The notes beneath the pieces are model-generated. The model was not told where the DNA came from and did no database searches. It saw nothing but the letters and a program-made list of their open reading frames with translations. Below are positions 9,944 through 51,173 of a stretch of 64,000 nt of DNA, piece after piece (position 1 is the stretch's first letter; every line of letters begins with the position of its first letter). A program made the position numbers and the translations under genes. This DNA is from a virus (Duplodnaviria > Caudoviricetes): the IMG/VR virus record IMGVR_UViG_3300033463_000023, positions 32,001 through 96,000 of that record; one strand, written 5' to 3'.

Positions 9944-10249
9944 GTGAAGATTATGGAAGCATGGAAAATCAGAAGAGCGAGGAAGAAACTCACTAAGTGG
10001 AATGACTACATTGTCAGCGAGTCGTCGTATGTGTTTGGTGCTCCATACAAACAGATGGGCGGTCGGACGTTCAAAGCCGAGTGTGCAGAGTCGGCTATCC
10101 GTCGTGCTCTGAGACATTGGGAGCGTCAATATCATCGCTTTCACGACAGAGGTGCGTCCGACTTGTGCAACCTATCGCCTACCACTCGACGATTTGGACG
10201 ATTCGAGGCTGTCAACGTTCAAAAGAACTTCGCTTATTATTTCAGATAA
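9944..10249 (+). CDS. hypothetical protein
   Basis: ORF in the operon; start probably 9953. Confidence 0.55.
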   Translation: MKIMEAWKIRRARKKLTKWNDYIVSESSYVFGAPYKQMGGRTFKAECAESAIRRALRHWERQYHRFHDRGASDLCNLSPTTRRFGRFEAVNVQKNFAYYFR

Positions 10250-10260
10250 ACAAAGGCGAT

Positions 10261-11025
10261 ATGGAAAACAAAGAAGAAAAGAAGATTGACAGATGCAAAT
10301 ATGCGCATCATCATTTCAACGGCGACATTTCTTGCATAGAGGCAGGAATGGCAGACGACAAGGCTGTGACGACCAACGAAGCCAAGTGTGAGACCTGCGA
10401 GAAGTACAAGTCGCGCTACATCGAATTTCCGCTGACGATTGACAAAATCGACGTGGAGCCGATAAAGACGGACAGCTTGAATGCCAAGACTGGCGACTTT
10501 GTGGCCGTGCGTCCATGTGGCGAGGAATACGGTGGCAAGACTTATCTCGGTATTTTCATCGGCGACCTGCCGATACAAAGTCTGGTGTCTTTCTACGAAA
10601 AGACAAGGACGCTGCGTGTCTCGACGATGGGCAATCCTGCAATGCTTGTGCCACAGTTGAACAAGATTATCTACGGATGCGGTTCATGGTGGCACAAGAT
10701 CAAGAGCGAGAAAGACCTGCGCGAGATAACCGACGGCGATATCAACGACACGTGGTATGTGAAGATGGCACACCAGATGATGCAGCAGCGCAGGAAGTCG
10801 AGCATTGAACTGAAAGAGGGCGACCGATTCCAGCAGGCATGGAAAGGATGCAAGGAGCCGATGTGGTTCAAGGTGCTCAATATCGACCGTCCGAACAACA
10901 GCCTGCGCGTGGAGTGTCACAGTATTAGCGGAGACATGCACGAAGAGGAATGGGACGAACTCGACGTTACAGAGTCGGCCTTTGATGTTGGCGAATATAA
11001 AATGATAGAAGATATGGAGGACTGA
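10261..11025 (+). CDS. hypothetical protein
   Basis: ATG at 10261 within ORF 10081..11025. Confidence 0.75.
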   Translation: MENKEEKKIDRCKYAHHHFNGDISCIEAGMADDKAVTTNEAKCETCEKYKSRYIEFPLTIDKIDVEPIKTDSLNAKTGDFVAVRPCGEEYGGKTYLGIFIGDLPIQSLVSFYEKTRTLRVSTMGNPAMLVPQLNKIIYGCGSWWHKIKSEKDLREITDGDINDTWYVKMAHQMMQQRRKSSIELKEGDRFQQAWKGCKEPMWFKVLNIDRPNNSLRVECHSISGDMHEEEWDELDVTESAFDVGEYKMIEDMED

Positions 11026-11029
11026 CACG

Positions 11030-11380
11030 ATGATGACCCATGACGAAATCTCACGCTTCTTCAGCGAGGAAGACGTAAATAGGGCGTTCCAGTTTCCCGA
11101 TTGGCATGCGGGAACGGAAATAGTGTGCTACTGCCGCTCTACCGACAGCCGCGATACCATTGAGCAGATAGCCCAGCGAGGCGGGTGGAAGATTGTGAAG
11201 TACGTCCACATCGACGAACTGCCGATAGCCCAGCTCTACAAGCCAGGGCAGGCGGTGTTCGCCAAGCGCGAGGCGTTGGAGTGGAAGAAAGATCCAACGA
11301 TGCCGAGTTACGAAGAATGGCGCAATCAGATGCTTGGCGGCCTGCGCCCGTCGGACTGGGATAGATTCATAGTAAGATAA
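11030..11380 (+). CDS. hypothetical protein
   Basis: Operon spacing. Confidence 0.7.
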   Translation: MMTHDEISRFFSEEDVNRAFQFPDWHAGTEIVCYCRSTDSRDTIEQIAQRGGWKIVKYVHIDELPIAQLYKPGQAVFAKREALEWKKDPTMPSYEEWRNQMLGGLRPSDWDRFIVR

Positions 11381-11397
11381 TTAAAAGGAATACGATT

Positions 11398-12030
11398 ATG
11401 AAAGAAGCAAAAGAAATGATGATCAAGTTGCCGATGGTTACGGCAACATCGTATGAAGAACTGAACAAGGCGAGAACCTACCCTCAGTCGGGGCGGTACA
11501 TCGTGAAGATGGACAACGGCGATATCATGGTGGCCGACGTGACGCTACGACCCGTCGAGCAGGGTGAGGCACGTACAATCGACGAGGGCACACAATCGAC
11601 CTGCACCTGCTTTGTCGGTCAGCCCGTAGTGCTCGACCCCGACGAGTGGACATTGGCTATCGACCTGGAGAATGCGAGGCTGGCATACGAGGCAGACCGC
11701 AAGCGGATGGAGGAACAGATGCGGGAAGCCAACGAACGCCACGAGGCTGAGATGGCGGAGCAGAAAGAGAAATGTGAAGCTGTCTGCCGCGAGACAGAGG
11801 AAAACTGCAAGAAGCTGATTGAAGAGAAGGAGAAGGAACTGTCGGCTCACGCAGAGGAAAACGACCGCACACTGGCCATGCGCCGCATGGAACTGGAGCA
11901 GGAGTACGAGAAGAAGATAATGAAACTCGAACTCGACACACCTAAACGCTTTGCACAGGGCGAGTGGGTCAGCGGCAAAACACTGACGGAAATCATCAGG
12001 ACGCTGACAGCAGGAAAGAAGGAGGACTGA
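11398..12030 (+). CDS. hypothetical coiled-coil protein
   Basis: E/K-rich C-terminal half. Confidence 0.75.
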   Translation: MKEAKEMMIKLPMVTATSYEELNKARTYPQSGRYIVKMDNGDIMVADVTLRPVEQGEARTIDEGTQSTCTCFVGQPVVLDPDEWTLAIDLENARLAYEADRKRMEEQMREANERHEAEMAEQKEKCEAVCRETEENCKKLIEEKEKELSAHAEENDRTLAMRRMELEQEYEKKIMKLELDTPKRFAQGEWVSGKTLTEIIRTLTAGKKED

Positions 12031-30665: not shown

Positions 30666-31808
30666 ATGACGAAAGCAAGATACATGGCGCTGGCGGACTT
30701 CCAGTCCCTCTGGGACGGCGCCATCAAGCCGTGGATACGGAGCCTCGGCCTGGACGTGACGGACATCGCGTCCCTCGCCGCGGACTACGTGTTCAGCCCC
30801 GGCGAGACGGTGGCCCTCAACGGGTCGCTGTACCGCTGCACGAGCGCGACGCAGGCCACGCCGCTGACGCTGGCCACCCAGGGCGGCAGCCTCGTGTACG
30901 TGGAGCTGAACGGCCAGCGCGCCTACGCCGTCACCGGCACGACGCTCAACGCGGGGTGGCAGAAGGTGACGGACGTCGACGACAAGTTCTGGGCCGAGCA
31001 GCGCCTGGCCACGAAGGCCGCCAGGGCGACGACGCTCTCCGGCTACGGCATCGGCGACGCCTACACGAAGGCGCAGGTCGACGCCCTGACGAGGCACACC
31101 CGCCTGACCGACTTCGACCTGGCCACGCTGAGGAAGGCCGTCGCGGACCAGAACCTCGAGAAGTACGGGCTGAAGGTCGGCGACCAGAAGACCATCAACG
31201 GCAACGTCTACATCATCGCGGGCCTGAACCCGATGAAGGGCAGCACCCTGCAGACGTACCCGTGCACGGCGGACCACGTCGGCCTGATCGTCGTCCCCGA
31301 CGCCGCCGCCCTGGCGTGGAACGCCAGCGGCAACACCTACACGGGCGCGGGCGGCAGGGGCGCAGGCTACGCGAACAGCGACCTGCACTACTATCTGAAG
31401 AACACGGTACTCCCGCTGGTGAAGGCCGACCTCGGCGAGGACAGGATCCTCTCCCACGGGAAGCTGCTGACCAACGCCGTGAACCAGAGCGGCTACAACC
31501 GCCTCGGCGGGAACACGGGCTGCGCCTCCGGGCACGCCTGGGAGTTCAGCTACATCGCCGCCCTCTCGGAGGCGCAGGTCTGCGGCGGGACGGTATGGAG
31601 CTCCTCCGGCTACGACACCGGCGAGGCGTCCCAGCAGCTGGAGGTCTTCAGGAAATACAAGTACACGGAGCTCTTCGGCGTCAGCGGCGTCTGGCTCAGG
31701 GACGTCGTCTCGGCCACCGAGGCCGCCTTCCTCTGCGAGTACGGCCAGCCGTCCATGCGCGCGGCGACGTACCAGTACAAGGCCGCCGCGCTCGTCCTGT
31801 TCCACTGA
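30666..31808 (+). CDS. tail fibre/receptor-binding protein
   Basis: TTLSGYGIGDAYTKAQVD fibre motif; C-terminal WLRDVVS region resembling lectin-fold tips. Confidence 0.7.
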   Translation: MTKARYMALADFQSLWDGAIKPWIRSLGLDVTDIASLAADYVFSPGETVALNGSLYRCTSATQATPLTLATQGGSLVYVELNGQRAYAVTGTTLNAGWQKVTDVDDKFWAEQRLATKAARATTLSGYGIGDAYTKAQVDALTRHTRLTDFDLATLRKAVADQNLEKYGLKVGDQKTINGNVYIIAGLNPMKGSTLQTYPCTADHVGLIVVPDAAALAWNASGNTYTGAGGRGAGYANSDLHYYLKNTVLPLVKADLGEDRILSHGKLLTNAVNQSGYNRLGGNTGCASGHAWEFSYIAALSEAQVCGGTVWSSSGYDTGEASQQLEVFRKYKYTELFGVSGVWLRDVVSATEAAFLCEYGQPSMRAATYQYKAAALVLFH

Positions 31809-31823
31809 TAAAACGACAGAGAT

Positions 31824-32501
31824 ATGGAAGCAATACAGATCATAAGAGACACCGCGCCGTTCCCCGAGACGGAGCGCGTCAGCGAGGCGCAGGTGAACTT
31901 CTACTTCGACCGGTCGGAGCGCCCCTACGGCGACGGCACGCAGTACATGGCCGTCGTGGCGGAGGTTGAGCTCCCCGCCGAGGAAGGCAGGGAGGACGAC
32001 GTCAACGAGGTGAAGGCCCTCGCGCTGCCCGCCGTGAAGGAATACCGCATCGGCCAGATCGGCGAGTACGACAGGAGCAGCAACGTGAACTCCTTCAGCC
32101 TCGGAGCCGTCAGCATGTGGCTCACCGTCGACGAGAGACAGCGGCTGGCCACGCAGATCAGCGCCAACGAGGCCATAGGCAGGGAGAGCATGAGCAAGTG
32201 GTTCGGAGGACATGAGTTCTCCTTCCCCGTCGCGGCATGGAGGCAGATGCTCGTGGCCCTGGAGGTATACGCCGGCGACGCGCTGAACGTCACCGAGAGC
32301 CACAAGGCCGCCGTGAACGCCTTGGAAGATACGGACGAGGTCCTCGCCTACGACTTCACGGCCGGCTATCCCGAGAAGCTGGCGTTCCCCTACCCCGGCC
32401 CGGAGCCTGAGACCGAAGAGGAACCCGGGGAGCAGGAGGAGGAGCCCGTAGAGGAGCCCGCCGTGGAACCGGGTAACGAACCTAAAGGAGAAGAGTCATG
32501 A
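31824..32501 (+). CDS. DUF4376-like tail fibre assembly protein
   Basis: I.EYD.S.NVNSF...MWL...R...LEVYA...NVT..HKAAV...YDF..GYPEKL pattern directly after the fibre gene. Confidence 0.75.
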   Translation: MEAIQIIRDTAPFPETERVSEAQVNFYFDRSERPYGDGTQYMAVVAEVELPAEEGREDDVNEVKALALPAVKEYRIGQIGEYDRSSNVNSFSLGAVSMWLTVDERQRLATQISANEAIGRESMSKWFGGHEFSFPVAAWRQMLVALEVYAGDALNVTESHKAAVNALEDTDEVLAYDFTAGYPEKLAFPYPGPEPETEEEPGEQEEEPVEEPAVEPGNEPKGEES

Positions 32502-32770
32502 AGAAGAAGCTCATAACAGTCCTTACCGTCGCAGGCGCCCTGTTCAGGGCGAACAAGGGAGCGATGAGTGAGTTCACCATCCTCCTGCTCGTGACGCTCA
32601 TTTCCGGACTCCTGTCCGGCAGCGCCCTCTGCGGCGCATGTACGGGAACCGTCGCGAACGCGGGGCTCGGGAAGGTGCTCGACCTCCTCCGCCTCTCGTT
32701 CTCGTCCACGCCCCGCCCGGCAGTCCTCGGCATCGCCGTGGGCACGCTGCTGGCGCTGGCGATACTTTAG
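32498..32770 (+). CDS. small membrane protein
   Basis: Hydrophobic; ATGA overlap. Confidence 0.55.
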   Translation: MKKKLITVLTVAGALFRANKGAMSEFTILLLVTLISGLLSGSALCGACTGTVANAGLGKVLDLLRLSFSSTPRPAVLGIAVGTLLALAIL

Positions 32771-32813
32771 CCAACACAAAAAACGATTATTAACAACTTA
32801 ACTTTTTCAGATT

Positions 32814-33230
32814 ATGAACACAATTTCTTTTCTAAACGCAATGAAGGAGGTATTCTCCACTCTCGGTGCGAAAACTTCTGACAGCAACTATGGTGTTGCA
32901 CTTCTTGACAAGACCTCAGGCGAGCCCAAGGGCCTGATGGGAATGTCCGACCTCGCCTCAGTTCTGGGCGGTGCTATAACAAGATTTGTAGATGCAAATA
33001 CCATACTTTCAAACATTACAGATGATGCTAATGTTTGTTGGGGACGCGGAGTAGATACGCCATCTGATGCTCCCTTTTATGCCGCTGGTGTATGTATGGT
33101 GAAAAAAACACAATATGGGTGCATTCAAGTGGCATTTAAATCTGCAGGTGAATTTGACGGGTTTTATATTAATCAACGTTGGATGACTACCTGGTCTGGC
33201 TGGAAAAAGAGTATTGTGACCAATGTATAA
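32814..33230 (+). CDS. shufflon expression gene: 50-aa constant region fused to cassette 1 (adhesin/fibre tip)
   Basis: Only array gene with a proper AT-rich leader and ATG; site TTCTGGGCG at 32962-32970 after SDLASV; cassette ends WSGWK. Confidence 0.88.
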   Translation: MNTISFLNAMKEVFSTLGAKTSDSNYGVALLDKTSGEPKGLMGMSDLASVLGGAITRFVDANTILSNITDDANVCWGRGVDTPSDAPFYAAGVCMVKKTQYGCIQVAFKSAGEFDGFYINQRWMTTWSGWKKSIVTNV

Positions 33231-33236
33231 AATGTT

Positions 33237-33497
33237 CTGGGCGGCGTGAGATACAATGGAGTTTCACTTTCAGATTTTAATAACGCAAAACAACAAGGAG
33301 CTTATAAGATTGACACAGGAACCGCCAACTTTCCCACAGGTGCGTACCAATACGGATGTTTAGTAGTTTTTAATGCAAATCCTTTCTTGGTACAAATTTA
33401 TTTTCCTGATACGAATAGATTTGTTTTCGTTAGGACACTTTATAATGGCATTGAATTCAGAACTTGGAAAATGATATCAATGGAGGAACTTACATAA
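33237..33497 (+). other. silent cassette 2 (knob-like)
   Basis: Site 33235-33243; LGGVRYNG...DFNNAKQQGAY...TWK. Confidence 0.85.
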
Positions 33498-33574
33498 AGA
33501 GGAGGGAACTACCCCTCCTCTTATTATGCAAACGTAATATGTTTCCATTCTCCCCATACACCATTTTCGACATT

Positions 33575-33928
33575 CTGGGCGTGCCTTATAATACAACAGA
33601 CTCCGATACCTGGCTTGATACAGGTAAAGCTATACGTATTGCAACAAATTGCGGCAGACTCTGCGCTATGGTAATAACAAGATACTCTTGCTATGTGATG
33701 TTAGTAAGCGTATATGCAGGAACTATTAATACAGGTCAGTCTTTGAAGGCAAAACTCTCTGGAAGCGATCTTGGTTTTTATTATGTAACAAATGGCAGCA
33801 AATGTGATCTGTATATTACATCTTCTACGTCTACTGACTGCGTAGTAGTTCCTTTCTGGAACACACCACAAGGCACATTTGAGTTAACACCAGTTAACGC
33901 TTTGCCGTCAGGTGCTGTAGCATTCTAA
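33575..33928 (+). other. silent cassette 3 (non-knob class)
   Basis: Site 33573-33581; LGVPYNTT...LPSGAVAF*. Confidence 0.85.
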
Positions 33929-33932
33929 AGAA

Positions 33933-33956
33933 AAAGGGAGGCTAATACCTCCCTTT
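33933..33956. terminator. bidirectional hairpin between convergent cassettes (example of about 14 in the array)
   Basis: AAAGGGAGG-CTAATA-CCTCCCTTT; near-identical copies at 34241-34265 and 39118-39140. Confidence 0.75.
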
Positions 33957-33957
33957 A

Positions 33958-34236
33958 TTATGTTTGTGTACTAATCCATACGACATTCGCTCTATTTGTG
34001 TCTGACTTTGTAATTGTAATAGATGATGTTGTACATGTTACACCTGTAACACCTGATGCTTCTATTATTTGGGTTACATTTGTTGATCTTGAAAGAGAGT
34101 AAATACCAGGTTGGGAGGTCGAAGAACCTCCAACAGACACAATCAAGAATCCTGAAGCAGTTGATCTCTCTATTGTGATTTCTGAACTTCCAGCAGGAAT
34201 TTCATGCCTTTGATAAGAAAAACCACATACGCCCAG
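33958..34236 (-). other. silent cassette 4 (non-knob class)
   Basis: Variant site TACTGGGCG at 34230-34238; LGVCGFSYQRHEIPAG...WISTQT*. Confidence 0.8.
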
Positions 34237-34266
34237 TAGTAAAGGGAGGCTAATAACCTCCCTTTG

Positions 34267-34557
34267 TTATAATTCCTTCCATGATGACCACGAAACACTG
34301 CCTGGATTTCCCAAACCGTACCTTCCATAAGGAGTGCTGCTTGATCTGTCAATGACAATCTGATACCTATCGTAAGTAGTGTGTATATAAACAAGCAAAA
34401 AACGAGTTGAGGTTGATATTGAAGAAGGAAGATTGGCAGGAGCAGACGATGGTGCGCACATACTCCAATACAATCCTGTTCCTGTTCCTGCTTCAAAATT
34501 TAAATCAGTTAGATTACCAAAATCGCTGCTCTTAATTTTGGTAAAGAATGCGCCCAG
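34267..34557 (-). other. silent cassette 5 (knob-like)
   Basis: Site 34551-34559; LGAFFTKI...WSSWKEL*. Confidence 0.85.
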
Positions 34558-34824
34558 AAGGCTTGCGAGGTCACTTGCTGTGGAGCAATTAAAGCTGTTA
34601 CAGTTACCCCAATCAGACCAGCTTGTACCACTAAAGGTTCTTTGGATAGACCGAGCTAAGGTCGGCTGATAGACGGTCTGCACATATCTACCTCCTGATA
34701 CACCAACTACATCAATTGTCCCCGTATGTCCTCCGGGGAGCAAGTCTGATGAGCAAGTGTATCTTCCTGGTGTCTTCAAATCATCAATCGAATTTCCGCT
34801 GTATGTGGTTACTGCTCCGCCCAG
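34558..34824 (-). other. silent cassette 6: stop-less extender cassette
   Basis: Site 34818-34826; LGGAVTTY...WSDW..CSTASDLASL reads in frame into site 5. Confidence 0.85.
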
Positions 34825-34844
34825 AACCAACTTTTATAGCGGTT

Positions 34845-35099
34845 CTGGGCGTACCAACCAAGTTTGCAAAAGGCGCACTACAAGTATCTGCAGACAATAT
34901 TAACGAAGACGGGGCATGGTTTGTGTATGGCACCAGTGGGTTGAACACGCCTACAAACTACGGAATCCTCGTGTGTCGGAAGTCCGCGACCGCAAATTAT
35001 GGATATACCGGGGTACAGGTATTTTATCCTACGACAGGACAACTTTCTCACAGGATACAGACGTCAGGTAGCGAATGGGGCAGTTGGCAAAACGGGTAA
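34845..35099 (+). other. silent cassette 7 (knob-like)
   Basis: Site 34843-34851; LGVPTKFA...WGSWQNG*. Confidence 0.85.
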
Positions 35100-35136
35100 G
35101 ATAATAAAGGGTGGTACTTAATCCGTCCTCTGTTGC

Positions 35137-35397
35137 CTAAACAGCGATGCCTTCAAATTTTGTCCAACTCCCCCATGAAGATTGTGTCCTAACCCTACAA
35201 TGAATGTACTGTACGACACCACAATGGAACACCACCTGGAGTCTGTTATAATAAGAGGTGCCAAGTTGTAGCGTGACAATTAATGCGTATGCGTCTGGAC
35301 CGCCATGAGCATTGCCCGTAGTTAATGTCATGGTGTTGCCTTCAAGATCATCCAGGGAGGTGTTTTCTTCCATGCTAACGGGTCTCAGGCCGCCCAG
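35137..35397 (-). other. silent cassette 8 (knob-like)
   Basis: Site 35391-35399; LGGLRPVS...WGSWTKF. Confidence 0.85.
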
Positions 35398-35417
35398 AAC
35401 CGCTATAAAAGTTGGTT

Positions 35418-35717
35418 CTGGGCGCACAAGCCACCAAGCCAGTCAATATCGATACGATTAGAGAGGGTGTTTCCTTCTTGGTTATCTCCCGGCCGTTTTT
35501 GAGTGGGTATGAAGGAACTTTTCCTTCTGACATGCAGGCTGGAGGCTATGCGTCTTCTGTGTTCTTGATCAGCGCTGTTTTTATTCAAAACTCCAACGAT
35601 AAAATTGGCGTACAACTGTTGTATAACTGGAATGACGATACTCCAACAGTGCTGAAAAGCTGGTATAGGATATGGGGGTACAATAGTAGGACGTGGAAAT
35701 CATGGAATAGCATTTAA
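35418..35717 (+). other. silent cassette 9 (knob-like)
   Basis: Site 35416-35424; LGAQATKP...WKSWNSI*. Confidence 0.85.
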
Positions 35718-35742
35718 GGAGGCGGGCTCTGACCCGCCCCTC

Positions 35743-36102
35743 TTAACTGTATGGCGTCACGCTTAATTGAGTTGCGCCACTTGGCAACGACGCAGGGCTA
35801 AAGGCTTTTGCACCAATAGCAATTAACGACACGCTCATGCCCGTTACAGACTTTATGTATACCGATTTTCCGTCCATGTATATTTCAATATAACGGTTTA
35901 CGCCAGATTCAACTACGCCATTTTTCCCCTTGGCTGATACCGTTCCGCCATTCCCGTATATCGTAAAGTCTATCGTGCCGCGGCTGTCTTTATAGTCTGA
36001 GCCGATTATCCTGATACATTCGTACAGGTCACATGTTCCAAGATAGTATACCGCATTGTTGCTTAGTCCGTATGCGTTATAAACCCTGCTATTTACGCCC
36101 AG
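35743..36102 (-). other. silent cassette 10 (non-knob class)
   Basis: Site 36096-36104; LGVNSRVY...LPSGATQLSVTPYS*. Confidence 0.85.
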
Positions 36103-36122
36103 AATGATATAGTGAAGACATT

Positions 36123-36401
36123 CTGGGCGGTATTGACGATATATACAAAGGGTCTTTTGCTGTAAACGACACGGTTTCCATAGCACTAAGAGAAGGCTGT
36201 GGGGTATTCTGTTATCGGTTTAAAGGACAGAGCTCCGGCATAATCGCTGTTAGAGGCACGGATATCAAATATTTCACATATACCGATTATGAGGAAGCTC
36301 CTTTAGGGGCAAGACTGAGAGCTGGATCAGATGGTAGCACATTGACCATCACATGTACTCAAGCATGGAATAATCCGTTCCATCTAAAGAGACTGATTTG
36401 A
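36123..36401 (+). other. silent cassette 11 (non-knob class; absent from the ORF track)
   Basis: Site 36121-36129; hand translation LGGIDDIYKGSF...FHLKRLI*. Confidence 0.85.
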
Positions 36402-36405
36402 ATTT

Positions 36406-36689
36406 CTGGGCGATACAGGTCCGGCGATAACGACAGGATCGTGTAACGATATAGTCAAAGCTGGAGTCTACAGACTTCAACCAACTGTTAGCGACACCCC
36501 TTTCGCTTATACTACGTTGTTCGTATTAACGCGCTTGGGTGGTGCTGTCCATCAAATCGGCCTTGATGCTGACAATAGTTATGTGGCATACAGGGTCGGT
36601 GAAAATAATGTGTGGAAAAACTGGTCACGCTGCGACAACTTCGGCTGAGCACGCTTGCCGAGATGAAGGCGGCACTGGCTAATGTATAG
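36406..36689 (+). other. silent cassette 12 (knob-like; 1-nt deletion in the C-terminal tail)
   Basis: Site 36404-36412; LGDTGPAITTGSCNDIVKAGVY...WKNWSRCDNFG* (stop 36648); STLAEMKAALANV* continues in another frame. Confidence 0.8.
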
Positions 36690-36719
36690 TGAGGTGGGAG
36701 CAACAAACTCCCACCCATA

Positions 36720-37004
36720 TTACTCTATCGGAATATAGTAAACGGTAACCGTCGTTCCTGAATCAGCATTATTGATAGTCCATGTTCCCTGATTGTTTGT
36801 CGAAGGCGTCAAGTCTCCCACAATCTTTTCGTTTACATGGAATGTTACATTGCCAGAGCCGAGTCCTGTTGTTATGACAAAATAAACGCCACACTTCTTG
36901 AAGTCACTTTGAAACGCCACAATAAATCCGTGTGCGGTACTGTTTTTGAAAGCGGTGGCACCTATTCCTTTATTTATAACCTTCAGTCTATTATCTACGC
37001 CCAG
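36720..37004 (-). other. silent cassette 13 (non-knob class)
   Basis: Variant site AACTGGGCG at 36998-37006; LGVDNRLK...VYYIPIE*. Confidence 0.8.
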
Positions 37005-37013
37005 TTGTGATTT

Positions 37014-37259
37014 CTGGGCGTATCAAGAATAACTCCGTCAGATTTAAACACTGAGAGTTTCTTCGGAGTATTTAAAACCGACGGACAAACACAGAACAAT
37101 CCCGCTGATGGATCTGCAATGGTGGGCGTACAATTTAGGGGAGAGCCTCTTAGTACCGTCCAAATGCTTTTCCGTAGTGCCTATGGTGAAATATACTATA
37201 GGTCTGGTGTCCCTAACGGCCAATGGTATAAGTTTGTAGGAACGCCTGTTCAGGTATAA
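37014..37259 (+). other. silent cassette 14 (knob-like; absent from the ORF track)
   Basis: Site 37012-37020; LGVSRITPSDLN...QWYKFVGTPVQV*. Confidence 0.85.
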
Positions 37260-37292
37260 TACAATCGGGAGGCGACAGGTCTCCCGATTGTT

Positions 37293-37607
37293 CTACGCAT
37301 TAGCCAGTGCTGTCTTCAATTCAGCAAGTGTGCTGCAACCGAAGTTATCTACCCGTACCCAAACTGACCAGGTTCCGTCGTGTTTTGTTCGATGGTATAT
37401 TTGACCATTTCCTCTGTAATAAGCAGTTTGTGAAACCTCATCAGATGACGATTCGTCACTGGAATTTAATGATTTGACGGTTAAAATACAAAGAGATGGT
37501 TCTGGTATGTTTTGTGAATAACCTGATAATGTATAAGTTCCCGCTATCGTTAATGTATTAGCATCTAAAACTGATGTAGATACATTTCTTACGCCATCTG
37601 CGCCCAG
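37293..37607 (-). other. silent cassette 15 (knob-like with helical tail)
   Basis: Site 37601-37609; LGADGVRN...WSVWVRVDNFGCSTLAELKTALANA*. Confidence 0.85.
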
Positions 37608-37629
37608 AAGTTCAGTTGTGTGTAATCTT

Positions 37630-37875
37630 CTGGGCGGCGTGCCGTCAATGCACACTGCGGATTCTTCTATTGATGCGAACACCTTAGCTGTGCCCGGGTT
37701 TTATCAATCCACTGTTTTTACTAATACACCTATTGCCGTTGGCATTTTGCTTATGCCGTACTATGCAAACGGTTGGTGGAGGTTCCAGTTGTTTATAGAC
37801 CGCTCCGAAGGCCACATGTGGTTTAGGTGTGGCACTTCCAGTTCTTTTGATGCGACCTGGAAACAGATAGTATAA
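37630..37875 (+). other. silent cassette 16 (knob-like)
   Basis: Site 37628-37636; LGGVPSMH...DANTL..PGFY...TWKQIV*. Confidence 0.85.
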
Positions 37876-37901
37876 TATGGATAGGCAAAAACCTATCCAT
37901 A

Positions 37902-38156
37902 TTATACCGTCTTCCATGTTGCCGTTTCTCTGTGTCTCCAATATATTCCAGTGCTTTCCAGATCAAGAACGATGGTGATTATGCCGTTAGTAAGGAATTT
38001 GATTCTTCTTATGTAAACAGAGTTGCTGTCGGAGATGGTTTCAGGCAAACCTTCACACCTTACTGCATATTGGAAAACATAATCACCTAACGGCAAGTCG
38101 TCGAGTGCAAAACTTTTGTCGTTTGCCGTGATTTGTTTTACATAAGCTACGCCCAG
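37902..38156 (-). other. silent cassette 17 (knob-like)
   Basis: Variant site TCCTGGGCG at 38150-38158; LGVAYVKQ...TWKTV*. Confidence 0.8.
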
Positions 38157-38290
38157 GACAACACATGTAATATATGAAAGAGTAAAATGGTCAACATCTG
38201 TAAGCGCGTGGATAGCGTACCAACCACAAACGTAAGAAGGAAAATGTGGCGGAATTAGGCTAAAGAGGAGGGAGCGACTCCCTCCTCTTG

Positions 38291-38563
38291 TCATACCTCA
38301 CCCCACGATCCCCATTCTGTTTCAGACCACCTGGAACGTTTCCACAGCTTTGAGTTCCCTTTTGAGAGACATATCTGGAACCTGACATATTCCGATCGAG
38401 CGACAGAAAGCAGAAGAACCTCATTATTGTTGTCTGGGAAATTTAATGATGCTGGTGTTGCGTCCCTTGCAATAACGTCATGTACACTAAGGCCGTCGTT
38501 TATATTGTTGAGATTCGTGTCCACCTCATATTGAATGCCTTTTATTGCAAGCAATGCGCCCAG
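38291..38563 (-). other. silent cassette 18 (knob-like)
   Basis: Site 38557-38565; LGALLAIK...WGSWGEV*. Confidence 0.85.
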
Positions 38564-38585
38564 AAGATTACACACAACTGAATTT

Positions 38586-38843
38586 CTGGGCGTTATTCGT
38601 TATACAACCTTAATTCCGGCTGGAAGTGATTGCAACGACTTCAAACAGAGTGGCTTATATAATACAGCGGCAAACCTTCAAAATGCGGCATATGCTGGAG
38701 GTCATATTCTTTTCGTTATGAGAGCAGGAGAATATGTCGCACAAATAGCCTTTGATCCAACTGAAGGTAAAGCAAAGCTGAGAACTATAATAGATCGGGC
38801 CGGTTCCACGTATACATGGGTAAACTGGCAAATTATTGTATAA
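38586..38843 (+). other. silent cassette 19 (knob-like)
   Basis: Site 38584-38592; LGVIRYTT...WVNWQIIV*. Confidence 0.85.
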
Positions 38844-38875
38844 ATACAAGCGGGAGCTGCATGGCTCCCGCCTCT

Positions 38876-39118
38876 CTGGGCGGCATAAGGTTGTCCGATA
38901 GTGCAATTGCGAATTACGCAGACATGACAATGTCTGGCTTATATGTGAGAAATCCAAATACACCTCTCTCCGGCTCAGACATTAATATTGGGTGGGATGG
39001 TACATACCTTTTTATTGCCCATCTCAAATTTGGTACTATGGGCTGCTTAGATATTGCTACAGTATACAACCATACCAAATATTGGATTGGTTTTAGCAAC
39101 GACTGGAGAGAATTATAA
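38876..39118 (+). other. silent cassette 20 (knob-like)
   Basis: Variant site CTCTGGGCG at 38874-38882; LGGIRLSD...NDWREL*. Confidence 0.8.
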
Positions 39119-39138
39119 AAGGGAGGGTTTACCTCCCT

Positions 39139-39396
39139 TTAGATATTGGTCATTGTACATTTCTTCCAGGCAGACCAAGAAGCACTGCTGCCTCCTTTGT
39201 ATCTATGTCCAATTATATTCTCAGCGTTGCACGAGAAGAAGACTTGACAGGACATGGAAGATCTTATCATTACGAATACGATGCCAGGGCAGCTAAACGG
39301 ACTGTTAGAACTGTCTATTCTATAAGTTCCGGAGCCGACGGTGTTAAGAGTTTCTGCCGTCAGATCCGCAGAGCCTACATAAGCACCAACGCCCAG
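39139..39396 (-). other. silent cassette 21 (knob-like)
   Basis: Site 39390-39398; LGVGAYVG...WSAWKK. Confidence 0.85.
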
Positions 39397-39418
39397 AAGT
39401 TCAGTTGTGTGTAATCTT

Positions 39419-39673
39419 CTGGGCGCGGTTGTCATAATTGGCACGTTTTCAGATGCAAGCGAATTGGAGAGTCACCCAGTATGTGCGGGACGGGCGTCTG
39501 GATCTGCTACAGGAGTCCCGGAGCAGAATAGTTTTTATCTAAGCATAAAGATAAATGGAGATTACATTTTTCAGATTGGTGTAGGCAAAGAGTCCAACTT
39601 TATATATGTGAGGACAAAGTTCTACGGAGGATGGAGGAACTGGTGGAAAGCTGCGACAACCAAAATTGAATGA
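39419..39673 (+). other. silent cassette 22 (knob-like)
   Basis: Site 39417-39425; LGAVVIIG...WRNWWK. Confidence 0.85.
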
Positions 39674-39733
39674 TAGCATTATAACCATTCATTGCACAAT
39701 GAAAGAGACGGGTTGTTACCCCGTCTCTATTTG

Positions 39734-40084
39734 TTAAAGCAATGTATATGATACGTTGCCGTACCTTTGGATTTCAGACACCATAAGAGCGCCAAACGAG
39801 TTGCCTCCAACGGCAGTACACGTTACCTTCACATCTCCGTCGCTGTTGTCTGACGATGGTGTAAATTCTATATTGATATAATCCGTTTTCACAACAACCT
39901 GTCCATTGAGCAGCGAATCCCTGTGTGCAAGGTTGATAATTGCGCATGCTTGCAAATTAAAGAAATTCCTTGTCACGCAAAGAACGGCGTTTCCCTGCAT
40001 GGGAAGATTTACATTAAATTCGATAACCACAGGATTGCTGGTACCGGAGCTTTTAAAGGCGTATACCACATATTGTGCGCCCAG
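39734..40084 (-). other. silent cassette 23 (non-knob class)
   Basis: Site 40078-40086; LGAQYVVYAF...SYTLL*. Confidence 0.85.
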
Positions 40085-40112
40085 AAAAGAGGTGGGTTAA
40101 TCCCACCTCCTA

Positions 40113-40379
40113 TTATGTTAAAGCAAGGTATTTCCACGATATCCAATTAGAATTGTTTCTTATCCTAAAATAGACTCTTGTCAAATCGGACATTATCCAT
40201 ATTTGCAAGGTGTTGTAATTTGCATTACCTGCGCCAGTAGCAAACGTCAGCAATATTCCCCATTGAGTAGGTAGATTGTGGCTTGAATAACTTGAATCAT
40301 TGACAGAGTAAGCACATGTTGTGAGTACTGTGTTGGCATCTATGTTAGCGATATGACCTTTTGGTAGCACACCGCCCAG
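40113..40379 (-). other. silent cassette 24 (knob-like)
   Basis: Site 40373-40381; LGGVLPKG..DANT...WISWKY. Confidence 0.85.
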
Positions 40380-40399
40380 AATGTCATCGTGTTACCATT

Positions 40400-40639
40400 C
40401 TGGGCGCATTGGTAGAAAAACATATCATGATAGAAGATCCAGACAGTATAAACAACACAGGCATATATCCAGCAACGTTTACATATAAAACAGGAACAGC
40501 CAGGGGAATGCTTGTTGTGTTCGCAGATAGTACAGTTAGTAGTTTTCCGGCCCAACTCTTTATCGGCTATAACGAGTGTATGGTGAGAAGGGCATCTAAC
40601 ACACAAGCATCATCTTGGTTAGATTGGAAAGAACTTTAA
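40400..40639 (+). other. silent cassette 25 (knob-like)
   Basis: Site 40398-40406; LGALVEKH...WLDWKEL*. Confidence 0.85.
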
Positions 40640-40683
40640 TAGGTGGGAGAAAACTCCCACCCATAATTATGAAATAGTCAGCT

Positions 40684-40941
40684 CTGGGCGTAGCAGACTT
40701 CCAAAATTTTTCAGGCAAAGACCTTCCGGATTATGATGCTAACGCACTGGTAACTGGTATTTATTCTACAGCTGCAAACAGAGATTCCAATATTCCAGTT
40801 AACGTTAACGGACTTCTCCTCTGCTTTAAGAGGTCAGCGGTGTATTTTCAGGTTTACATGATAATGGGTAGCTCCATTTTTTACAGGAATTATTTTAACG
40901 AATGGAACGCATGGAAAAAACTGGAGGGAACACCGGTTTGA
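40684..40941 (+). other. silent cassette 26 (knob-like; absent from the ORF track)
   Basis: Variant site CTCTGGGCG at 40682-40690; LGVADFQN..DANAL.TGIY...WNAWKKLEGTPV*. Confidence 0.8.
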
Positions 40942-40971
40942 CAAATAGAGGTGGGCGCATACCCACCTCGT

Positions 40972-41211
40972 TTACTGATCCACCGTTCCTTCAATCTTTC
41001 TCCACGACTGCCATCCTGCTGTCGTTCTGCTACGGGTTAGCACAAATTCCCTATTATAGGGGGCGTAAAACAAAAAGAAATCGAACTTTAAGAGCATACC
41101 GTTAGTGTTGGAGTCAGAAGGCAATCCTTGCAGGCTTGACCCAAAATACAACCCGTCCGCAATTTCTGTTGGGTTTACGTTTGTTATTTCTCCTTTGTTC
41201 ATTACGCCCAG
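40972..41211 (-). other. silent cassette 27 (knob-like)
   Basis: Site 41205-41213; LGVMNKGE...WQSWRKI. Confidence 0.85.
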
Positions 41212-41231
41212 AATGTCATCGTGTTACCATT

Positions 41232-41441
41232 CTGGGCGTTACATTTAGCACCATTCCTTCTACTTCAGATCCATTTCAAGGGTGGCAAAAGATGTGTATT
41301 CAGTTTAAAAACGCTAACGCCGTTACTCAGTTTGCCATTAAACTAACACGCACATCAGGTTTTTCCGTTGCTGTCAGATCAACAGATGACAATTCAGCAG
41401 CCGATATTAACAGCAAAACATGGGAAAACATTAAAAACTAA
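41232..41441 (+). other. silent cassette 28 (short)
   Basis: Site 41230-41238; LGVTFSTI...TWENIKN*. Confidence 0.8.
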
Positions 41442-41467
41442 GGAGGTGGGTTTGTAGCCCACCTTAA

Positions 41468-41719
41468 TTATGTGTTGTCTGTAGCCAAATATGTCCAAGG
41501 ACCTGCCGAGGCTCTCAATGCAAACTTTTTCCCGGATGAAGCGTTGTATGCCATTTGTAAACAATACCCGTCCAGGTGGCTGTTAATCGTCAGGCATACG
41601 CCAAAGGTAAACGGGGCATTTGTGGTTTGGCTGGAAATAACACAGATACTATTTTGTTTGTTGTTGCCAAGTAAATTATCAAGATCGTACTGGCCCGTTA
41701 GTTTGGTTATACCGCCCAG
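41468..41719 (-). other. silent cassette 29 (knob-like; absent from the ORF track)
   Basis: Variant site TCCTGGGCG at 41713-41721; LGGITKLTGQYDLDNL...PWTYLATDNT*. Confidence 0.8.
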
Positions 41720-41722
41720 GAC

Positions 41723-42946
41723 TTACTTCGGTTTCCGCTTCCTGAAGATCTTCTTCGTGGCCTTCTCCGCGGCGTGGTCCCTGTCGAAGGTGTAGTGCGC
41801 CTCGGTGGTCCGCGTGCGGCTCTGGCCGAGGATGGACGTGATGTTCTGGATGGGCATGCCCATCAGCGAGAGGTTCGTGGCGCACGACTTGCGCGCGACG
41901 TGGAAGCTGACGGCCTTCCCGATGCCCGCCATCGCGGCGACCTCCTTGATGACCCTGTTGGCGGTGGAGTTGCACGGCACGCAGTGAGACAGCTCGCGGA
42001 CGTCCGGGTAGCGGCAGAGGATGTCCATGCCCCTGCCCCAGAACAGCGACCTGATCGGCACGGCGACCTGCCGCTTCGTCTTGTGCATCGTCTTGCGCAG
42101 CACGCCGTTCCTGACGGTCGCCTCCTCGAGCGTGGAGAGGTCGCTCCACCGCAGGCCCGTGTAGCAGCCGAGGAGGAACAGGTCGCGCACCCTCGCCTGC
42201 CGCCCGGCGAGCTCCAGGCGCTCCATCCTCGCGATCTCCGCCAGGGAGAGGAACGCCACCTTCGGCCTCATGTTCCCTATCGTGATGAAGCGGAACGGGT
42301 CGCCGGGCATGGCGTCGCGCTTGCGGGCCTCCTCGCAGAGGGCGTGGAGCGCCTTCAGCCGCCCGATGGCGGTGTTCTCGGCCAGCCCCTTGCCGTCGAT
42401 GAGGAAGGCCCTGTAGCGCTCGATCATGTCGTGCGAGAGCTCCTGCATCGTCGTGTGCGGGCGGAACTCCTCGAAGGACCTGGCCAGCGTGCGGTAGCTC
42501 TCCTTCGTCGACGCGCTGCGCCCCGCCGACGGGACGATGACCGCCTCGACCATCTCCGCGACGGTGGCGGACCTCGACACGCGGCTCAGGTAGGCCTCCT
42601 TCACGCGCCGCGGCGTCGGCGCCGCCCCGGCGGCCTCGAGCTCGTCCTCGTGCTCCATGAGGCGGCGGACGATGCGGGCGACCTTGCGGTTCAGGAGGTC
42701 GTAGTTCGGGTCCGTGGGCTGCACCTTCCCGTAGCGGAAGTCCTCCTGGCGGACCCTGACGTGGGTGTTCACCGTGGCCCGCTCCCCGGTGCCGGCCATG
42801 TAGATGCTGACGACGACGGCGCGCGTGCCGTCGGCCGCCACGTACCCGTTCCTGCTGAGGACGGGCCTGAAGGTGATGGTGGATATCATAGGCGTAGGTC
42901 GTTTGTTGTCGTTCATAATATGTACGGAAAACGGGCGGCGTTTCAT
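41723..42946 (-). CDS. tyrosine site-specific recombinase (probable shufflon invertase)
   Basis: TGLRWSD (R), FHVARKS (HxxR), LGQS..TTEAHY (Y); N-terminal arm-like and SAM-like regions; stop abuts site 29; true start may be 42916 or 42889. Confidence 0.92.
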   Translation of the reverse strand: MKRRPFSVHIMNDNKRPTPMISTITFRPVLSRNGYVAADGTRAVVVSIYMAGTGERATVNTHVRVRQEDFRYGKVQPTDPNYDLLNRKVARIVRRLMEHEDELEAAGAAPTPRRVKEAYLSRVSRSATVAEMVEAVIVPSAGRSASTKESYRTLARSFEEFRPHTTMQELSHDMIERYRAFLIDGKGLAENTAIGRLKALHALCEEARKRDAMPGDPFRFITIGNMRPKVAFLSLAEIARMERLELAGRQARVRDLFLLGCYTGLRWSDLSTLEEATVRNGVLRKTMHKTKRQVAVPIRSLFWGRGMDILCRYPDVRELSHCVPCNSTANRVIKEVAAMAGIGKAVSFHVARKSCATNLSLMGMPIQNITSILGQSRTRTTEAHYTFDRDHAAEKATKKIFRKRKPK

Positions 42947-49886: not shown

Positions 49887-51173
49887 CTACTCGGCCTCGA
49901 ACTGGGCCACGAGGTTCTTCACGCCGCCGCCGAACTCGTAGTTGAGCGGGTTGTCGGTGAAGGTCTTCACGCCGTCGCTCCAGCCTGCGAGCTTGAAGCC
50001 GCTTTTAGGCGTGGCGGTCACGGTGATGGTGTCGCCGTCGGCGTAGAGGTCCTTCTGGCCAGAGGTGATGGCCACGGTGCCCTCTGTCTCGTCGGCGCTG
50101 GTCACGGTGAAGATGTCGGCGATGTACTGGCCGGGCGTCCAGTCATACGTGTTGACGGCGTCGTTGCAGGCGAAGTACATCGGGTCGTAGTCGCGGATGC
50201 GGGTCGTGGCGGCCGAGTTGATCTGGTAGCCGATGATCGACAGGTCGTCGTTGGTCTGGCCGATGCGGATGTTGGCCTTTCCCTCGCGCGTGTCGCAGAT
50301 GAACTCCAGGATGTCCTCGCGGCAGACGGCGATGAGCTGTCCGCCGGTACCCATGGCGGCCGAGGTCTTCAGCGTCAGGTTGGGCATCTCGGCAAACTTC
50401 CAGCTGGCCTCCAGCACGGTCGGGGAGATCTGCGGGAAGGTGAGCATGTAGCCCTTCACGGCCAGGCGGCAGAACTCGTCGGAGGCGAGGATGGTGAGCT
50501 TGTTCTCCGGCTTCTTCATGTGGGGATGGAGGGCGCCGTAGAACTTCACGAGCAGCTCGTAGACCTCGACGGGTGTCAGGGGGACGGTGTTGCCGCCCAC
50601 CTGCTTGGTCAGGCCGCCGGTCATGATCAGGTTGCGGTTGGCGACCGAGATGGTGCCGTCGGTACGCTTCTGGGCGATGAGCGTGTAGAATCCGTCGAAC
50701 AGCGAGAGGCCGAGCTTCACCTGGTTGGCGGGTACGTCAGGCAGGTTGCGGTTGGCCTTGTTGCCGAAGAAGATGTTGAAGCGGACGTCCTCGGCGGCAC
50801 GGCCGGCGATCTCCTCCATGTTCTTGCGCGACATCACGGCCTCGTCGGCGGCGTTGACCACGTTGAAGGGGCCCTTCTCGCGGTAGCGCTCGATGCTGTC
50901 CTCGGCCTTGATGTAGTACGGCTCGACCTTCGCGGGGTTGTCCACGATCTTGGCGAGCTGGGAGTTCTTCACGTTGCCCACGCGGTACGGGCGTGCCACG
51001 AGGCCCTTGCGGTTGAAAATCTGACAGACGTCGATGTTCTCCACGTCGGTCGTCACCATGATCCCGAGGTTGCCGAACATGGCATCGTCGAGCAGGTAGG
51101 CCTTGGCCACCAGCTCCTCATGGATCTGTTCCTTGACATGCTGGATGTCACTGATGTTAAGTGCGTAAGACAT
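49887..51173 (-). CDS. major capsid protein with C-terminal Ig-like domain
   Basis: Directly downstream of the prohead protease; strongly biased codons; C-term GDTITVTATPKSGFKLAGWSDG. Confidence 0.75.
   Translation of the reverse strand: MSYALNISDIQHVKEQIHEELVAKAYLLDDAMFGNLGIMVTTDVENIDVCQIFNRKGLVARPYRVGNVKNSQLAKIVDNPAKVEPYYIKAEDSIERYREKGPFNVVNAADEAVMSRKNMEEIAGRAAEDVRFNIFFGNKANRNLPDVPANQVKLGLSLFDGFYTLIAQKRTDGTISVANRNLIMTGGLTKQVGGNTVPLTPVEVYELLVKFYGALHPHMKKPENKLTILASDEFCRLAVKGYMLTFPQISPTVLEASWKFAEMPNLTLKTSAAMGTGGQLIAVCREDILEFICDTREGKANIRIGQTNDDLSIIGYQINSAATTRIRDYDPMYFACNDAVNTYDWTPGQYIADIFTVTSADETEGTVAITSGQKDLYADGDTITVTATPKSGFKLAGWSDGVKTFTDNPLNYEFGGGVKNLVAQFEAE

Follow-up and report, generated by a model that had tools for sequence, protein, structure and literature searches.

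Can one cassette without a stop codon turn a shufflon, in which a constant gene part is fused to alternative ends, into a system that joins such ends in series? The question is raised by a 64,000-nucleotide stretch of phage or prophage DNA (hereafter, the window), for which bovine gut metagenomes were the best-matching sequencing runs. The G+C content of the window is ~65%; that of an 8.8-kb stretch within it (32962–41721) is ~43%. The original prediction, made from sequence alone, was that cassette 6 of this stretch is the only one with no stop codon, and that the site at its far end, site 5, is a second variable position, giving constant part + knob 6 + any other cassette. We regard this "extender" reading, i.e., combinatorial switching of the tip via cassette 6 and site 5, as the probable one for this phage.

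The locus meets several criteria by which shufflons are recognized. A gene with a start codon (32814–33230, plus strand) encodes a constant part followed by the 9-mer TTCTGGGCG, read as V:LG (a colon marks the junction in all such strings). Between 32962 and 41721 there are 29 sites (NNCTGGGCG) with the core CTGGGCG, 15 on the plus strand and 14 on the minus strand; such repeats in both orientations, separating several DNA segments, are one criterion. Another is a constant 5′ gene part accompanied by in-frame, start-less 3′ cassettes. Cassettes were called by translating every NNCTGGGCG site within 32500–41800 in the junction frame, and all of them (29/29) were open in that frame, 28 for 70–120 codons and then a stop. 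Nothing was conserved around the 29 sites except (TT)CTGGGCG. Allowing at most one mismatch, we counted 52 matches to the 9-mer vs. 20.9 expected, a number reached in none of 100 shuffles. Exact copies of the 9-mer are clustered at 32962–41238; one more lies outside the array (50668–50676), in a part of the phage with 63% G+C.

The criterion of a dedicated tyrosine recombinase adjoining the array is also met, and the arrays of relatives are flanked by the same type of enzyme. Compared with NCBIfam, the recombinase matched no model at the cut-off and gave only weak Xer-like matches. Because a constant gene, 29 core sites opening start-less ORFs in one phase, and a tyrosine recombinase occur together, we interpret the region as a shufflon. 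It is most plausibly a large phage shufflon of 29 cassettes with a 7-bp crossover core, CTGGGCG, that swaps the C-terminal knob of a small fibre-tip protein. That the adjacent tyrosine enzyme carries out the inversions is an inference, and the trimeric state of the tip is supported by a model but not shown. The tip proteins had no match in Pfam; a search of PHROGs likewise yielded none, except for a weak match of the ORF comprising cassettes 6 and 5 to the unannotated phrog_18794 (E 0.006).

The base composition of these arrays is worth recording separately. Cassette arrays (window, L002, L003, L007, L010, L011, L012) have 38–43% G+C irrespective of the backbone, which has 33% in L011, ~39–41% in L010, 52–57% in L007, and 67% here. 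The recombinase gene of the present phage has 67% G+C. Horizontal sharing of one pool of cassettes by phages that infect very different hosts could account for A+T-rich arrays on such varied backbones, as could selection for A+T-rich cassettes.

Table 1. Positions of the features discussed in the text (window coordinates).
Feature	Position	Strand	Remarks
Constant N-terminal part of tip protein	32814..32961	+	Expression site; 49 aa; ends ...GLMGMSDLAS
Expression-site junction, TTCTGGGCG (V:LG)	32962..32970	+	
Hairpin, G+C-rich, just past cassette 5 stop	34241..34265	-	Read directly from the sequence: aaagggagg-ttatta-gcctcccttt
Cassette 5, terminal knob with stop	34267..34557	-	LGAFFTKIK...WSSWKEL, then stop
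Internal junction (site 5), exact TTCTGGGCG, same reading phase (L:LG)	34551..34559	-	
Linker helix ASDLASL, model residues 84-90	34558..34578	-	Mimics end of constant region
Cassette 6, stop-less extender knob	34561..34827	-	89 codons; VLGGAVTT...CSTASDLAS; sole stop-less one of 29
Head site of cassette 6, TTCTGGGCG	34818..34826	-	Back-to-back pair with head site of cassette 7 (34843-34851)
Tyrosine recombinase, presumed invertase	41723..42946	-	Far end of array; Pfam Phage_integrase 5.9e-13, Phage_int_SAM_5 5e-12, Arm-DNA-bind_5 6e-4 (weak)

The anatomy of the stop-less unit is shown directly by the DNA. The ORF first described (34267–34830, minus strand, 187 aa) is present. Read from 34826 on that strand, the frame runs for 186 codons, through site 5, to the cassette 5 stop at 34269–34267. 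After its knob (...GTSWSDWGN), cassette 6 encodes CNSFNCSTASDLAS, followed by an exact TTCTGGGCG in the junction phase. The original prediction fared well on these points: only 1 of the 29 cassettes is without a stop, and the claims that the linker mimics the end of the constant region (SDLASL:LG in cassette 6 vs. SDLASV:LG) and that the frame continues through site 5 held both for the DNA strings, which had been given correctly (gacctcgcaagccTTCTGGGCG at site 5, gacctcgcctcagTTCTGGGCG at the constant junction, 32962), and for the translation. The two Ser codons of SDLAS are TCC and TCA at the constant junction vs. AGT and AGC in the cassette 6 tail. Because these belong to different codon families, the likeness is kept at the peptide level and does not stem from a recent copy of the DNA. 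Site 5 itself matches everything that is conserved among the 29 sites and has the same 9-mer as 23 others. The hairpin found past cassette 5 has no counterpart between cassettes 6 and 5; a scan for consensus terminators left the cassette 5 hairpin, which has no T run, unflagged.

Other cassette ends bear on the linker. A "capped" linker, i.e., a helix and then a stop (...NFGCSTLAELKAALAAV, stop), occurs in the protein P0015, in one cassette of L011, and in cassette 15 of the window (37293–37346, minus strand), which ends in DNFGCSTLAELKTALANA and a stop. Cassette 12 (36630–36690, plus strand) stops after ...CDNFG, and one base later the frame reads STLAEMKAALANV and a stop; inferring from the sequence, this end may be a capped linker broken by a 1-nt frameshift. 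The left flank of cassette 20 (38874) was considered as a decayed extender linker and rejected, as it is the hairpin trailing cassette 19.

How might a stop-less cassette operate? In our proposal, a site would comprise a left context, the core CTGGGCG, and a cassette, with the core lying in the Leu-Gly codons that end a short helix (S-D/E-L-A-S-x-L-G) before every knob. Which residue precedes Leu-Gly would depend on the left context, the constant part contributing V and extenders L or A. Ordinary cassettes would consist of a knob and a stop, which ends translation; an extender would instead end in another left context. Cassette 6 would be a knob, a helix, and a core, its 3′ end acting as a second expression-type junction. 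Inversion between 32962 (plus) and 34826 (minus) would create constant part + knob 6 + knob 5, a protein of ~235 aa (vs. 228 aa for the relative P0002, described below), and later inversions at 34559–34551 would exchange knob 5 for other cassettes. Through inversion at this internal site, an extender could also be re-paired while it is silent; in the present state, inversion between 32962 and 34559 would yield constant part + knob 5, and knob 6 would then be paired with the present cassette 1. The two sites of an expressed extender would be direct repeats, and an enzyme that resolves direct repeats would delete the extender. Because of this arrangement, the array would be stable only if the enzyme favours inversion. 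Rci of R64 is an enzyme that favours inversion; a similar bias here is presumed by analogy only. Many direct site pairs do persist in the array, which is merely suggestive of inversion without deletion.

To learn how widespread such architectures are, we turn to relatives. A search with the 187-aa ORF returned three (P0001, P0002, and P0003), and one with only the constant part returned 47 proteins (42 no longer than 242 aa and 5 exceeding that length). These 47 homologues have the constant part in common and differ in their C-termini. Six (P0002, P0022, P0033, P0078, P0079, and P0080) have the extender form: constant part, stop-less knob, ...LAS(L/A):LG, and second cassette. The combination of constant part, knob 6, and a cassette other than 5 is found in P0002 (228 aa) as a complete gene: it shares the constant region, and its first knob, which has 77% identity to cassette 6 over 88 aa, is followed by ...EDLASL:LG and then by a second cassette with no significant likeness to cassette 5. 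Its junction sites were inferred from the protein alone. Among the six forms there are at least five types of extender knob besides that of cassette 6, and P0033 carries, as its second cassette, one with 77% identity to cassette 20 of the window.

Many more stop-less cassettes occur on other constant regions, where a library-wide HMMER search with the 187-aa ORF as the query found the same layout. Two-knob forms of this kind are P0065, P0070, P0051, and a 300-aa gene of L002; P0067 (416 aa) is a three-knob chain with two extenders in series, and P0069 also has extenders in series. Expressed two- and three-knob products in relatives are thus shown. Because a knob, the linker N(F/S)xC(S/N)T..(D/E)LASL:LG, and a next knob recur in many independent relatives, we conclude that the in-frame read-through of cassette 6 is not due to chance. 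Extenders are not universal, since none was present in any of the smaller shufflons (L007–L010, with 2–6 sites). Scans for related loci, made with the 53-aa constant part among viral contigs and with the recombinase among genome contigs, yielded no candidate that passed tblastn.

A referee might object that the read-through is an artefact or a relic, produced by chimeric assembly at the repeated 9-mer or by fusion of a decayed copy of the constant region to a cassette. Shufflon regions do misassemble, and L008 is a case in point: three copies of one cassette (EFLIRAKGLTS...), all with the same left flank, lie at 10149–11713. Heterogeneity of the shufflon has probably misled the assembly there, which calls for caution with metagenomic contigs of such loci. 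Against this explanation, the independent Logan assembly of run X2 agrees across the junction (although it comes from the same sample), the same architecture occurs in complete expressed genes from many unrelated samples, and the linker is conserved as a peptide with different Ser codon families. We therefore consider an artefact or relic to be virtually ruled out.

Two further observations were made among the relatives. In P0077, the same constant region is joined to a 240-aa domain that, judged by eye, shares homology with the C-terminal two thirds of the separate fibre gene upstream of the array (30666–31808, plus strand), the likeness being RLTDF.L.TL..AVADQNLEKYGL.VGDQKTING... Conceivably, large domains are traded between a fixed fibre gene and the shufflon. 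In addition, a TnpB-like gene (OrfB_IS605, Cas12f1-like_TNB) and a small ankyrin-repeat gene lie next to the shufflon recombinase of relatives (L005, 6303–7439; L003, 5930–6412).

Is the core at an extender's internal junction there for the peptide or for the DNA? Cassette ORFs from the window and from the non-redundant loci contain 35 internal Leu-Gly dipeptides. CTGGGCG encodes Leu-Gly at 6 of the 7 extender junctions vs. 0 of the 28 other Leu-Gly positions (Fisher p = 4e-6). The seventh junction, in a silent pair of L003 (5104, plus strand), reads CTGGGTG, with one mismatch to the core; this pair may be a fixed two-knob cassette. At extender junctions, then, it is the DNA of the core that is conserved, i.e., selection acts at the DNA level.

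These figures bear on a second alternative, namely that cassettes 6 and 5 are a fixed two-knob cassette in this phage, with the internal TTCTGGGCG kept solely for the linker peptide ...LLG and unused by the recombinase. Two points favour it: the X2 contig spanning the region has the order of the window (see below), and L003 offers a precedent in its two-knob cassette with the degenerate core. Several points oppose it. Conservation of the peptide does not require CTG-GGC-G, and the contrast of 6/7 with 0/28 is not what it would produce; site 5 shares its 9-mer with 23 other sites, around which nothing else is conserved; a knob like that of cassette 6 has a different partner in P0002; internal sites have been used in L011–L013 (below); and cassette 5 occurs without cassette 6. 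As to the last point, a homologue of cassette 5 sits directly on another constant region in P0001 (L001), and another is a lone silent cassette in L002 (P0003). A third instance comes from run X4, in which a copy of cassette 5 with 15 differences in 291 nt (95% identical) is joined at 34557 to a unit like cassette 15. The joint includes the last 86 nt of that unit, with its stop and hairpin, leaving cassette 5 a lone cassette there; as the DNA is that of a relative, mapped at 90% likeness, this joint must be weighed accordingly. Constant co-travel of cassettes 5 and 6, which would have refuted the extender reading, is contradicted by these instances. We judge the fixed-cassette explanation to be improbable, and retain the extender reading.

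What do contigs from the source sample reveal? For the two runs from that sample, X1 and X2, we had Logan contigs only; in these, rare variants are dropped, and the parts not covered are uninformative. They break at back-to-back site pairs, including the head pair of cassettes 6 and 7. The sole contig that spans site 5 (X2, 32500–34847) has the window order, so no rearrangement was seen at this site; this contig, from the source sample, is not an independent one. Run X3, from another study and a related population, was more revealing: its contigs join 32962 with 40373, 33581 with 35399, and 34845 with 40683. Because these joints connect sites on opposite strands, we infer that the array has been inverted in that population. 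The rearrangement includes a site with one mismatch, CTCTGGGCG, at 40682.

The most direct evidence that an extender's internal site is used comes from a sibling lineage. L011, L012, and L013 are three contigs from different rumen samples with 99.6% DNA identity over a shared 800 nt. The order in L011 is constant part–TTCTGGGCG–E1–CCCTGGGCG–Y, where E1 is an extender, and its product is P0051 (248 aa). The order in both L012 and L013 is constant part–TTCTGGGCG–Y; the product, P0052 (147 aa), does not differ from P0051 in either the constant part or Y. The E1 tail (...ctcgcgtcagCC; ...gcgtcagCC) is still present in L013, joined to cassette Z on the opposite strand with the breakpoint within CTGGGCG; cassette Z in L011 has an ordinary left flank. 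L012 has a second extender, E2 (...ESALASA:LG, core CTCTGGGCG), joined to cassette W, which in L011 also follows an ordinary left flank. These joints show that, in this lineage, the internal site of an extender is used. The L011 order is converted to that of L013 by two inversions, one of them through the internal site of E1. Derivation of L013 by deletion of E1 between direct repeats was rejected, since the E1 tail persists, inverted and joined to Z; for L012, such a deletion of E1 remains possible.

The joints also locate the crossover. At every one in L011–L013, the first two nucleotides of the 9-mer stay with the left flank, and everything after CTGGGCG travels with the cassette. Because of this partition, strand exchange must fall inside the 7-bp core, which is where it is expected in the overlap region of a tyrosine recombinase.

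A third alternative traces the different partners seen among relatives to exchanges between phages that accumulated during evolution, by homologous or illegitimate recombination at the conserved linker, without programmed inversion. In its favour, most of the evidence compares separate metagenomes rather than one clonal population, and the G+C content of the arrays (38–43% in backbones of 33–67%) points to horizontal exchange of cassettes. However, the change between L011 and L013 is reciprocal and conservative, its breakpoints lie inside a 7-bp identity with differing flanks (TT vs. CC), the remaining DNA of the two is 99.6% identical, and the signatures are those of every ordinary site. Seven base pairs are too short for homologous recombination. 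We consider this alternative highly improbable, and programmed inversion remains our preferred reading.

Rearrangement by inversion at the sites, a further criterion for a shufflon, is accordingly met for the family (L011–L013 and the X3 contigs) and was not observed for site 5 of this phage. The original claim that site 5 is a second variable position is thus supported, mainly by relatives; that the present phage switches in the same way, and that the adjacent tyrosine enzyme is the recombinase, are inferences.

Structural models were consulted with respect to the linker, the knobs, and the oligomeric state. The AlphaFold model of cassettes 6 and 5 (mean pLDDT 79, pTM 0.48) has two beta knobs linked by the helix ASDLASL (residues 84–90). 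The cassette 6 knob has a beta-knob fold, with block-mean pLDDT values of 84–92 over residues 11–70. Foldseek matched this model to 9m7x, 9euf, 6cl5, 6v8i, 6iab, and 6cl6 (E 5e-5 to 3e-3, probability 0.99–1.00); the top matches comprise receptor-binding proteins of phages as well as R1/R2 pyocin fibres, and the criterion for a beta knob is thereby satisfied. The model of P0002 (mean pLDDT 80.6) likewise places a helix before each knob: 44–50 (SDLASVL) before the first, 133–139 (EDLASLL) before the second. The idea that SDLASxLG is a repeated linker therefore held in the models.

Modelled as three copies, P0002 scored 0.82, compared with 0.00 for the best control, with at least 91% contact agreement between runs and partner pLDDT of at least 90; the copies touch along the constant part, the linker, and both knobs. 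Of proteins solved as one-chain pairs, 20 of 30 attained the mark for this score; of those solved as single chains, 1 of 23 did. The job used three copies vs. two in the calibration, as well as our own alignment, and a pass may reflect likeness to solved knob-fibre trimers. The model thus supports, without showing, a trimer, and we regard a homotrimeric P0002 tip as a possibility predicted by modelling. That an extra knob alters receptor binding or reach is also inferred; there are no functional data on the assembly of two-knob tips on the virion or on their binding.

If the extender reading is correct, what follows for the repertoire? The shufflons known to date make as many products as they have cassette ends. 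A stop-less cassette with its own junction would make the system combinatorial with the same recombinase and the same site, adding up to ~N products per extender in a system of N cassettes; the repertoire would approximate the single knobs plus the products of extender and single knobs. The original claim of a roughly doubled repertoire is arithmetic only, with no measurement behind it. An extender would also change the number of knobs on the fibre tip, whose length would vary by whole knob units. A bolder reading is that of a recursive grammar: any knob that keeps the helix and CTGGGCG would be a non-terminal unit, tips could be built from one knob, two, three, or more, without restriction on their order, and P0067 and P0069 would be products of this grammar rather than fixed genes. 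We offer this version tentatively, as the evidence at hand leaves us leaning slightly away from it. Were it true, a population would be a multiplicative library of tip lengths and specificities, in which upper knobs might bind a second receptor or act as spacers through the capsule.

Such a system is relevant to how gut and rumen phages keep pace with variable host surfaces. It also affects the prediction of host range from metagenomic contigs, each of which captures a single state out of many. For engineering, it would be a natural design for swappable, stackable binding modules at a phage tip. Such modules would have their origin in a crossover core that lies within the codons of a structural linker repeated before every knob.

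How does this locus compare with known systems? One of its closest counterparts, the Rin shufflon of Bifidobacterium and Eggerthella prophages, is phage-encoded and employs a tyrosine recombinase (PMC6109161, PMC8778435). Both have the recombinase beside an array of start-less C-terminal cassettes of a receptor-binding protein, a short asymmetric repeat before each, and a constant N-terminal part. The Rin site, however, is the 11-bp TTCCCTAACCC (rix, PMC6109161), as opposed to (TT)CTGGGCG, and the rix criterion is not met here. Rin has five variable ends, each making one full-length gene, compared with 29 cassettes here, and no stop-less or second-junction cassette is present in Rin as far as PMC6109161 and PMC8778435 describe it. 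The tail-fibre shufflon of BV01-like Phocaeicola phages is active in gut metagenomes, with a flanking recombinase and configurations seen in reads (PMC13596623). It derives six isoforms from three cassettes via different stop positions and has a 10-bp motif, TGGGAGAACT; no extender module was described for it (PMC13596623).

The R64/IncI shufflon (Rci, sfx, PilV) and Min of p15B resemble the present array in joining a single constant 5′ part to different 3′ ends by multiple overlapping inversions, and R64 resembles it further in its asymmetric sites and tyrosine recombinase. R64 has seven ORFs (from a cited title); p15B Min is reported to assemble one of six ORFs out of 240 isomers (Sandmeier et al. 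1991). Both differ from the proposed system in having one junction per product, a repertoire that grows linearly with the cassettes, and a fixed number of domains. The criterion for the R64 Rci/sfx family is not met, given the absence of an NCBIfam model at the cut-off and the domain set of Arm-DNA-bind_5 and SAM_5. The sfx repeat is unlike the core CTGGGCG. Nor is the criterion for Gin/Cin/Min serine invertases (26-bp dyad sites) met: Min uses a serine invertase, whereas the enzyme here is a tyrosine recombinase, and the sites share only an asymmetric 9-mer. The remark in the original prediction that its author knew of no such feature in classical shufflons is consistent with these comparisons: a stop-less cassette with a second junction is absent from a systematic survey of gene-altering inversions (PMC9881135), and we found no prior description of an extender cassette in the literature searched.

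The nearest concept to the extender lies elsewhere. Phase-variable Type I hsdS loci, such as ivr of Streptococcus pneumoniae, shuffle two slots for target-recognition domains by inversions inside one gene (for context, see PMC9881135). They are combinatorial, like the system proposed here, but each slot has its own repeat, there are always two domains, and the product is not a fibre; here, one type of site serves all slots, and domains number one, two, or three. On the side of the protein, the top fold matches of the model of cassettes 6 and 5 are tandem-knob fibres, namely R1/R2 pyocins (6cl5/6cl6) and staphylococcal phage receptor-binding proteins (5efv, 6v8i, 9euf), which we take to be trimeric with knobs in tandem along the axis. 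Their knobs are fixed in one gene, whereas here the number and identity of knobs would be set by DNA inversion, an inference in the case of this phage. Phage shufflons with a tyrosine recombinase are thus known; what is probably new, as far as the literature was searched, is the stop-less extender with a second junction.
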